Shown piece after piece: positions 14,934-15,603 of a stretch of 64,000 nucleotides of DNA. The first letter of the stretch is position 1, and the number at the start of each line of letters is the position of its first letter. The stretch comes from an uncultured Clostridia bacterium. GTDB lineage: Bacteria; Bacillota; Clostridia; TANB77; CAG-508. Made by a program: the position numbers and the translations under genes. Below the pieces are notes generated by a model. That model ran no database searches. It was not told where the DNA came from and saw nothing but the letters and a program-made list of their open reading frames with translations. Location: NCBI GenBank assembly GCA_947629355.1, contig CANRDJ010000001.1, forward strand, positions 20,585 to 84,584, given 5' to 3'.

Positions 14934-14968
14934 AAAAGACTCCAGTATTGTAACTGAAGTCTTTTTTG
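14934..14968. terminator. hairpin terminator downstream of the Spo0A_C-like gene
   Basis: AAAAGACTCCAGT-ATTGTAAC-TGAAGTCTTTTTT, with an A-run on one side and a T-run on the other. Confidence 0.55.
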
Positions 14969-14977
14969 GAGTGAAAT

Positions 14978-15442
14978 TTAGTTGATATTAATGTAATCAA
15001 CTACCGTGGCAATAAACTCTGAATTTGTAGGTTTGCCTCTTTCAGGATTGATGGTATATCCGAAAATTCTGGTAAAATTTTCGACCCCGCCTCTGTCACA
15101 TGCTACCTCAATAGCATGCCGAATTGCTCTTTCTACCCTTGAACCTGTTGTACCGAATTTTTTTGCAACCGCAGGATATAATACTTTAGTTACACCTCTG
15201 ATTTTCTTGGAATCTTTCAACGCATAGATGATAGCACACCTTACATATGCATATCCTTTAATATGCGCCGGAATGCCAAGCTCTTTGAGGATATCTGTAA
15301 CACGCTGTTCGATAGTCTTTTCATCATCAACTTTTGTTTTTGAGTCAGTTTCTTCCGAAAGACCCCCTAACAAATCCTCGAGAGTTATGCCTTTTTCCCG
15401 GCATGTTTTAAGTACTTCTTGTAAGTTAGCATTTTTCTCCAT
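14978..15442 (-). CDS. stand-alone Spo0A C-terminal (effector DNA-binding) domain protein lacking the receiver domain
   Basis: 154 aa. The region GIPAHIKGYAYVRCAIIYAL...VTKVLYPAVAKKFGTTGSRVERAIRHAIEVACDRG...FGYT...KPTNSEFIA aligns with the Spo0A_C signature helices. No REC domain. Local GC is clearly higher than surrounding DNA. GGAGGAG RBS. Confidence 0.75.
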   Translation of the reverse strand: MEKNANLQEVLKTCREKGITLEDLLGGLSEETDSKTKVDDEKTIEQRVTDILKELGIPAHIKGYAYVRCAIIYALKDSKKIRGVTKVLYPAVAKKFGTTGSRVERAIRHAIEVACDRGGVENFTRIFGYTINPERGKPTNSEFIATVVDYININ

Positions 15443-15496
15443 AGCTAAACTCCTCCAAAAAATAATTTAGTCAAGCTCTTCTAGCTTGCTAAGTAT

Positions 15497-15525
15497 ATTA
15501 TACTATATTTTACATAATGTGTCAA
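15497..15525 (-). promoter_or_regulatory. consensus sigmaA promoter TTGACA-17-TATAAT driving the Spo0A_C-like gene
   Basis: Minus-strand reading is GAGCTTGACAcattatgtaaaatatagTATAATatact. The leader contains the palindrome CAAGCT-agaag-AGCTTG and a second GAGCTTGAC. Confidence 0.6.
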
Positions 15526-15579
15526 GCTCCACTTCATAACAAAAACAATCTGTCATCTTTTGTTGAAAATATAATAAAG

Positions 15580-15603
15580 GGAGGTTTAATCCTCCCTTTA
15601 TTG
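15580..15603 (-). terminator. intrinsic terminator AAAGGGAGG-TTTAAT-CCTCCCTTT after the adhesin gene pair
   Basis: 9-bp GC-rich stem followed by a U-run on the minus strand, 8 nt after the stop of the 15612 gene. Confidence 0.7.

Follow-up and report, generated by a model that had tools for sequence, protein, structure and literature searches.

This study concerns a gene of 154 codons in a 64,000-nucleotide stretch of an uncultured Clostridia bacterium (contig CANRDJ010000001.1, assembly GCA_947629355.1; the whole stretch is called the window hereafter), whose product carries the sporulation regulator Spo0A's C-terminal effector domain (Spo0A_C). We consider it probable, taking the explanation as a whole, that a low-GC (28%) gut Clostridia lineage has here a chromosomal gene, functional and monocistronic, that encodes a Spo0A paralogue with no receiver. 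Spo0A is the universal switch for entry into endospore formation, and its control is thought to run almost wholly through phosphorylation of its receiver domain. The window protein is not a bare Spo0A_C: a conserved helical module of 30 amino acids and an acidic linker precede the effector domain.

A Spo0A effector domain without a receiver

Spo0A_C (PF08769) is the sole Pfam domain of the 154-residue protein (E 5.9e-40, residues 48-151, profile positions 1-104 of 104). The Spo0A equivalog model of NCBIfam, TIGR02875, aligns only over its positions 134-256 and scores 163 bits, below the cut-off of 200 bits. The Spo0A C-domains in the PDB, 1LQ1 and 1FC3, match the protein at E ~1e-37, and an AlphaFold2 (AF2) model computed with the family alignment as input superposes on them with template modelling (TM) scores of 0.84-0.91, normalised by the target. 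The features by which a canonical Spo0A effector domain is recognised, the helix-turn-helix (HTH) with the recognition helix SRVERAIRHAIE and the motif KPTNSEFIA, are both present. No receiver (REC, PF00072) domain with a phospho-acceptor Asp was found in the protein by Pfam, by TIGR02875 or in the upstream frame. The in-frame sequence 5' of the ATG has stop codons, and only 170 nucleotides (nt), which contain a terminator, the promoter and the ribosome-binding site (RBS), lie between the ATG and the stop codon of the upstream adhesin gene; because of these stops, and of a gap that leaves no room for it, a receiver cannot be encoded upstream. A first-pass annotation of this DNA had described a Spo0A effector-domain product lacking the receiver, which the Pfam result, the partial TIGR02875 alignment and the PDB matches bear out, and had named a mis-split full-length spo0A as the finding that would undo this description; the stops in the upstream frame speak against such a split.

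The nearest relatives of the window protein are at most 59% identical to it and likewise short. After apparent short hits that were contig-end fragments of full-length Spo0A had been set aside, there remained a genuine short family (P0001-P0006, P0021, P0247, P0248 and P0250) with a common N-terminal motif and an acidic linker of variable length. Its members include clade A, found in the slot occupied in the window, and clade B (P0006 and P0021), found in a different one. The N-terminal module of 30 residues is common to all seven slot lineages and has the motif L..VL..CR.KG[IV]T[IL]EDLL, in which C14, R15, T20 and L24 are invariant. In an exhaustive HMMER profile search of 1.84 billion representative proteins the module was confined to this short family, a census that rests on about 10 clusters, and a 5.8-billion-protein index gave only one fragment of 30 residues. 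AlphaFold predicts a two-helix hairpin for this part (residues 2-16 and 21-29) with a low predicted local distance difference test (pLDDT) score of 52-60; for residues 25-40 the score is below 50, and the six-helix core is modelled confidently.

The features of the unit, all on the minus strand, are as follows.

14978-15442 (-): Spo0A_C-type open reading frame (ORF), 154 amino acids
15573-15602 (-): intrinsic-terminator-like hairpin closing the upstream adhesin gene (stop codon 15612-15614); 12-bp stem with 5 G-C pairs, then a T-rich tail
15497-15525 (-): sigma-70/SigA-type promoter; -35 TTGACA at 15525-15520, 17-nt spacer, -10 TATAAT at 15502-15497; 12/12 matches
15509-15518 (-): promoter-spacer block ATTATGTAAA, candidate operator; invariant columns in the clade A alignment
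15467-15492 (-): inverted repeat TTAGCAAGCT-AGAAG-AGCTTGACTAA, directly 3' of the -10; pairing kept in clades A and B
15450-15456 (-): RBS GGAGGAG, 7 nt 5' of the ATG; GGAGG kept in orthologues
15356-15442 (-): codons 1-29, family-specific N-terminal helical hairpin (predicted), with the motif L..VL..CR.KG[IV]T[IL]EDLL
15314-15355 (-): codons 30-43, acidic linker; indels in the alignment, predicted disordered
14981-15313 (-): codons 44-154, Spo0A effector (DNA-binding, trans-activation) domain, six helices; from Pfam, NCBIfam, PDB and AF2
14978-14980 (-): stop codon TAA
14934-14965 (-): intrinsic-terminator-like hairpin ending the Spo0A_C unit; 13-bp stem, kept in orthologues

The perfect TTGACA-17-TATAAT promoter and the strong RBS noted at first pass are thus confirmed, with matches at all 12 promoter positions and the RBS GGAGGAG. 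The terminators at both ends insulate the unit, the upstream hairpin isolating it from read-through of the adhesin gene. In an alignment of five divergent clade A alleles, the -35, the -10 and the 10-nt spacer block ATTATGTAAA, a candidate operator, show little or no variation; a sixth locus, P0248, has the block too, and a similar ATAATGTAAA is found upstream in clade B. The inverted repeat that follows the -10 recurs in clade B as CAAGTT..AACTTG, and RNAalifold gives 10 consensus pairs over clades A and B, 4 of them changed on both sides and several being G.U pairs. The window leader (5' untranslated region, 5'UTR) alone folds no better than its shuffles (z -0.83), and no Rfam family matches the leader or the intergenic regions. 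The repeat may act at the 5' end of the mRNA as a stem-loop, or else as a palindromic operator. That it occurs in two clades occupying different slots speaks for one origin of the entire unit, which would then have moved as a whole.

Slot, divergence and base composition

The window is ordinary chromosome, with a pyr operon, pyrG, leuS, purL/purM, murA, ftsQ, minC, a penicillin-binding protein gene, purA and two tRNA-Arg genes. The Spo0A_C gene lies between an M18 aminopeptidase gene downstream and an SdrD_B-type giant adhesin gene upstream, and the exact window protein is present on only ~7 metagenome contigs. Among the clade A loci whose contigs extend far enough to be judged, the order is adhesin and/or Na/Ca exchanger, short gene, M18 aminopeptidase and a transposase of the REP-associated tyrosine transposase (RAYT) type, the exchanger gene standing between adhesin and short gene in several of them. 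This M18-upstream slot is filled in 7/7 related lineages sampled (alleles P0001-P0005, P0247 and P0248); one short-gene allele derives from a pig gut metagenome. The clade B slot differs: clpX, a conserved ORF of 73 amino acids, the short gene and an OmpR-type two-component system follow each other, and a 47-kb clade B contig also has a spore photoproduct lyase gene. Among the Pfam-annotated neighbours, no phage, integrase or conjugation genes were found within ~10 kb of the short gene in either clade, nor did Pfam annotation reveal structural, integrase or lysis genes in the flanks of the window, L001-L012, L096, L100 and L104. The flanks thus consist of housekeeping and adhesin genes and are not those of a phage or prophage; nor does the gene lie downstream of spoIVB, as canonical copies on other contigs do, which follow SpoIVB-like peptidases.

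The clade B ORF of 73 amino acids (L096 9579-9800, L105 386-607) always lies ~200 nt 5' of the short Spo0A gene. It has no Pfam match and is 97% identical between L096 and L105, the adjoining short Spo0A genes being only 76% identical; it could be a partner or a co-regulated gene.

Within the clade A slot, the seven short proteins are 34-71% identical, and the M18 neighbours 86-99% (first 120 residues). For the same contig pairs, synonymous (dS) and nonsynonymous (dN) divergence of M18 are 0.24-0.45 and 0.003-0.06, against 1.4-2.4 and 0.26-0.41 for the short gene; a closer allele pair, P0002/P0003, has dS 0.75 and dN 0.18. The dN/dS of the short gene is ~0.1-0.25, a sign of purifying selection, and the ORFs are intact in all alleles, at least 10 of them divergent. 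With dN/dS far below 1 and intact alleles, the gene is therefore functional. The P0003 and P0004 loci have the closest flanks (M18 99% identical in amino acids, 96% in nucleotides), yet their alleles are only 62% identical, whereas those of P0002 and P0003 are 71% identical though their flanks are more distant; the histories of alleles and flanks are therefore incongruent. In a sliding-window comparison the divergent segment is the whole unit, from ~130 nt 5' of the ATG to the terminator, and identity between orthologous loci returns to 0.95-1.0 right outside the terminator, giving sharp boundaries. The most fitting description of the unit is that of a hyper-divergent cassette whose slot is conserved and whose alleles are much older than the flanking genes.

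Base composition sets the gene apart as well. Its GC is 0.387 and its GC at third codon positions (GC3) 0.318, against means of 0.282 and 0.145 over the other 45 long ORFs of the window (z 3.9 and 5.6), and it ranks first of 46 ORFs for both; the GC3 excess is uniform along the gene (0.30 in the N-terminal part, 0.32 in the C-domain). For canonical spo0A, taken as the control on two contigs of low GC, GC3 is 0.21 against ~0.155, a small excess, and most of the GC3 anomaly of the Spo0A_C gene is therefore real. The clade B relatives have a host-like GC3 of 0.13-0.18, so the protein sequence does not force the bias. Across the seven clade A slot alleles GC3 ranges over 0.19-0.43, and the adjacent gene is always lower (0.10-0.18). 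Canonical spo0A is itself the ORF of highest GC3 on both low-GC IMG/VR contigs checked (L107 and L118), a hint that spo0A of AT-rich Clostridia may in general be slightly raised in GC3.

The raised GC3 and the divergence together point to recombination from a divergent, GC-richer pool, to long-maintained allele lineages, or to both. A single old transfer followed by amelioration was rejected as sole cause, since alleles with saturated dS keep a GC3 of 0.41-0.43 in hosts of 0.13-0.16 and clade B is host-like. A recent one-off insertion was likewise rejected, as slot, promoter architecture and N-terminal module are common to the lineages. The first-pass annotation had seen raised GC and G/C-ending codons, an insertion between the M18 gene and the adhesin operon, and a pattern consistent with horizontal acquisition. 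Its compositional claim is upheld by the scan, in which the gene is clearly distinguishable from the average. Its position for the gene is right, and a foreign origin or exchange is still plausible; a recent insertion and a one-off island do not agree with a slot filled in seven related lineages and with a shared promoter/5'UTR architecture and N-terminal module.

Several neighbouring elements are recorded here as observations on the slot. The adhesin operon (15612-26569, minus strand) encodes three very large surface proteins of 1496, 552 and 1593 amino acids with SdrD_B, DUF11/CLIPPER and CarboxypepD_reg-like domains, the last protein having a C-terminal sortase-like signal and transmembrane anchor; among strains with an identical Spo0A_C allele (L001-L004), the adhesin gene varies in length (1496 vs 1516 or 1518 amino acids). 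Two genes from the Spo0A_C gene lies an IS200-like Y1 transposase ORF of the RAYT type with a C-terminal HTH (12394-13209, minus strand), which is syntenic in the sister lineages L001 and L100. A palindrome resembling repetitive extragenic palindromic (REP) elements, GAGGGACA..CCTCG, has 8 intergenic copies against 0.07 expected (14671-14687, 14731-14747, 14769-14785, 38839-38853, 38897-38911, 38992-39006, 42623-42637 and 47882-47896), and the element is tandemly duplicated, as two units of ~60 nt, in the M18 leader at the downstream edge of the divergent cassette.

Predicted activity and alternative explanations

The effector domain was compared with 31 full-length Spo0A sequences through the family alignment, in B. 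subtilis numbering. The family retains the near-invariant HTH and recognition-helix residues T194, K195, L197, Y198, T208, E213-A219 and E221, together with G227, F236, the KPTNSEFIA motif (P247-A254) and D258; with its DNA-contact residues unchanged, DNA binding of the 0A-box type would be expected. Only three near-invariant canonical positions are systematically replaced: H162 by K or R in 8/8, L176 by V in clade A, and A257 by V in 7/8 plus P0248. In the window protein, K53 corresponds to H162, V148 to A257 and C115 to W224, a near-invariant position at which P0001 alone has Cys. In B. subtilis, A257V (spo0A9V) loses the activation of the stage II genes spoIIA and spoIIG and keeps the repression of abrB, and H162R and L174F are intragenic suppressors of A257V (summarised in PMC9195935). 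The combination of V257 and K/R162 looks like a natural counterpart of this mutant with its suppressor, which suggests that the activation/oligomerisation surface has been remodelled by co-adapted changes and not simply lost.

Judged from its residues, the window protein most likely binds sites of the 0A-box type. Having no receiver, it would escape gating by orphan kinases and by the phosphorelay alike, and its activity would be set by the amount of protein made. Production would start from the consensus SigA promoter, with the spacer box and the promoter-proximal inverted repeat as candidate control points. The protein might then add to, pre-empt or compete with the host Spo0A~P at shared sites, hypothetically in the direction of either activation or repression, and the modelled N-terminal hairpin may, more speculatively, replace the receiver in dimerisation or partner binding. 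The B. subtilis precedent is a constitutively active C-terminal Spo0A fragment (Grimsley et al. 1994) together with the sad67 form (Ireton et al. 1993); PMC10294663 cites the two. Removal of the receiver there relieves inhibition of the effector, and this is the basis on which constitutive activity is predicted. The constitutive 0A-box binder of the first-pass annotation thus remains the most reasonable mechanism in view of the intact contact residues and the missing receiver, with binding as a prediction from sequence.

Several points weigh against this explanation. The N-terminal module is modelled at low pLDDT (52-60) and has no detectable homologues, and any role given to it is a guess. 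W224C could weaken the fold in P0001. The effect of A257V depends on context, since sporulation is not abolished by it in P. polymyxa (PMC9195935). As dS is saturated, the rate ratios are approximate. Competition with the host Spo0A is itself hypothetical. The 64 kb contain one exact TGTCGAA against 2.2 expected, with nothing informative at one mismatch; 0A boxes are not enriched near the Spo0A_C gene or the adhesin promoter, and no binding sites were identified. Finally, no donor was found for the GC-rich alleles: viral short forms are 37-50% identical, and canonical Spo0A 63% on average.

The question of a donor leads to the rival that survives best, in which a truncated spo0A of a phage or mobile element, of the kind by which phages would overrule the dormancy choice of their host, was captured in the chromosome, domesticated, and is still being replaced from the phage pool. 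Such an origin would explain both GC3 and allele turnover, and it has literature precedent: Schwartz et al. 2023 (mBio; PMC10294663) described truncated, effector-only spo0A genes on gut phages and proposed a signal-independent control of sporulation, and Jiang et al. 2019 (PMC6907783) found PF08769 enriched on mobile elements of gut Firmicutes. In IMG/VR, 323 stretches match Spo0A_C; among the 80 loci kept, most ORFs have 96-195 amino acids, and many short-form loci lie on contigs of 30-60 kb with ~40% GC. The GC of 0.39-0.42 of the Spo0A_C gene fits such phages and not a host of 28%. The phage-borne Spo0A_C-only homologues for which the first-pass annotation had proposed a search do exist, on IMG/VR contigs of which L167 is a verified phage; its Spo0A_C gene comes after Ant, and it also has genes for a tail fibre, SSB, an SbcC-like protein and RecT. 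L146 (33% GC) is phage-like in having a large terminase; the N-terminal extension of its short form is weakly similar, without the K162/V257 signature. PHROGs, too, holds a short Spo0A_C family, phrog_24603, the window protein matching two PHROG families. Against this origin stand the flanks of both clades, free of phage, integrase and conjugation genes within ~10 kb; the conservation of slot, promoter architecture and N-terminal module across lineages; the restriction of that module to the chromosomal family; and the host-like GC3 of clade B. Moreover, the C-domain resembles canonical clostridial Spo0A, at a mean identity of 63%, more than it does the viral short forms sampled, at 44%. A neighbour-joining (NJ) tree of 111 columns places clade A among the canonical sequences with weak support (bootstraps of 45 for clade A, 100 for clade B and 5 for A+B). 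We regard a domesticated phage gene as a credible but unlikely source.

The viral and plasmid collections gave further observations. In the widespread gut phage group L144-L185 (~40% GC, many from sample 3300045988), as at L167 5173-6381, the early/regulatory region has an Ant-type anti-repressor gene with a Spo0A_C-only gene of 125-133 amino acids right behind it, and SSB, SbcC-like and RecT genes come next; the position beside Ant suggests a role in a lysis-lysogeny or early takeover programme. The 14 INPHARED hits were rejected as phage relatives. They are unannotated 'Bacteriophage sp.' gut contigs, and the three inspected carry full-length spo0A after a SpoIVB-like peptidase, the order usual for the canonical gene in bacteria, and so are mis-binned bacterial DNA. 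These three, L093 (MT835718.1), L094 (MT838563.1) and L095 (MT835504.1), are entered in GenBank as 'UNVERIFIED: Bacteriophage sp.' from human faeces and have spo0A directly after the peptidase gene, L095 additionally carrying a glycogen-synthase-like gene; mis-classified bacterial contigs of this kind could inflate counts of 'phage spo0A'. Among PLSDB plasmids, the matches were all to full-length spo0A, carried by large replicons or by chromosomes with a wrong label.

The divergence described above also allows a reading in which the slot holds an ancient, recombining allele series of receiver-less Spo0A whose diversity is kept by selection, making the protein a polymorphic decoy or modulator of the master regulator. 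Selection might come, for example, from an arms race with phage Spo0A mimics or Spo0A-targeting factors, or from strain-specific settings of dormancy or colonisation; the 162/257 surface and the private N-terminal module would diversify with DNA recognition fixed. We put this forward only tentatively and consider it rather doubtful. If true, a selected allele series of a Spo0A decoy or modulator would be undescribed for sporulation control.

That the gene instead acts locally, regulating the giant adhesin operon or the M18 peptidase and standing outside the sporulation network, appears very unlikely. In the window, and in the long-flank loci with alleles P0001-P0003, SdrD_B/CLIPPER/SpaA adhesin genes do lie immediately upstream of it, canonical Spo0A governs biofilm and matrix genes in Bacillus, and Spo0A-type proteins also control biofilm and colonisation genes. 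But this linkage is synteny that close relatives have in common (their M18 is 86-99% identical) and does not count as independent co-occurrence; the Na/Ca exchanger gene stands in between in several clade A loci, and terminators insulate the unit on both sides. Because clade B, between clpX and the OmpR-type two-component system, has no adhesins nearby and there are no 0A-box-like sites 5' of the adhesin operon, the linkage is not taken as functional coupling. A decaying remnant, a mis-split spo0A or a non-functional ORF of incidental GC-richness, for which one might cite the short protein, W224C in P0001 and the split or truncated look of murA, purL, pyrD and pyrK in the window, is largely refuted and scarcely credible in view of the upstream stops and missing room for a receiver, the dedicated promoter, RBS and terminators, at least 10 divergent intact alleles in which the DNA-contact residues do not vary, a dN/dS far from reaching 1, the conserved N-terminal module, and a context other than spoIVB-spo0A.

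Returning to the receiver-less chromosomal paralogue, the concept of an effector-only, signal-independent Spo0A is already published and not new; what is new here is a chromosomal copy, its own N-terminal module, the natural occurrence of A257V with H162K/R, and the hyper-divergent transcription unit. Effector-only Spo0A copies bypass phosphorylation control, and to our knowledge those on gut phages have never been studied functionally. A chromosomal effector-only paralogue, conserved yet hyper-variable, would mean that a bypass or modulator of this kind is kept up by bacteria themselves. The family is also a natural experiment on the A257/H162 surface, whose part in transcription activation is known from classical genetics. 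Should conflict with phages lie behind the allele series, dormancy control would be linked to the arms races of gut phages and their hosts. The importance is moderate, given that the basic concept is published and that the functional claims are read from the sequence of an uncultured organism.

Other parts of the window also deserve mention. At 32353-33716 (plus strand), a small RelA/SpoT-like (toxSAS-type) protein of 204 amino acids is encoded with a 1-base overlap with a SocA/Panacea-domain protein of 249 amino acids; the pair resembles a toxSAS-PanA toxin-antitoxin module and has a low GC of 0.21-0.24. Several housekeeping genes appear split or truncated (42680-43928, 33816-37608, 7316-8029 and 8694-9062, all on the minus strand): murA is present as two ORFs of 183 and 229 amino acids, the glutamine amidotransferase (GATase) part of purL is separate (1104 and 140 amino acids), pyrD is without ~64 N-terminal residues, and a pyrK-like ORF has only 122 amino acids. 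These may be either assembly frameshifts of a metagenome-assembled genome or real gene decay. A stand-alone nucleotidyltransferase substrate-binding protein (HEPN-like, PF08780) is encoded directly 5' of leuS (29368-29775, plus strand), with no obvious partner nucleotidyltransferase ORF of at least 120 amino acids adjoining.

Comparison with known systems

The window protein shares with canonical Spo0A the six-helix fold, a C-domain with 51-54% identity to the structures from B. subtilis and G. stearothermophilus, and an identical HTH, recognition helix and KPTNSEFIA motif. It differs in having no REC domain or phospho-acceptor Asp, in falling below the equivalog cut-off, in not lying beside spoIVB, and in carrying H162K/R and A257V at near-invariant residues. 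Its family also evolves several-fold faster, with 34-71% identity inside a single group of genus level, whereas canonical C-domains taken from diverse genomes are 79% identical.

The constitutive Spo0A forms of B. subtilis provide a second comparison. As in those forms, the absence of the receiver would relieve inhibition of the effector, and V257 with K/R162 mirrors the pair of mutant and suppressor; unlike the laboratory forms, the arrangement in the window is natural and has an added N-terminal module, and its activity is a prediction.

Hyper-variable allelic cassettes in conserved slots are known from the comQXP pherotype locus of Bacillus and from the agr specificity groups. By analogy, the Spo0A_C unit has sharp boundaries, an allele divergence much larger than that of the flanks, and incongruence between alleles and flanks. 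It differs from them in its invariant DNA-recognition surface and in having no known partner or specificity determinant.

A further parallel is found in the truncated Spo0A of phages (PMC10294663, phrog_24603), which likewise consists of an effector domain with no receiver, is predicted to be independent of the phosphorelay and belongs to gut Bacillota. In contrast to L167 and L146, the forms verified here, the window gene is chromosomal and sits in a conserved slot, with 37-50% identity to the viral forms; these are mostly bare domains of ~125-130 amino acids or have unrelated N-termini, and none has the N-terminal motif of the family. In mechanism, the window protein most likely works like this truncated class.

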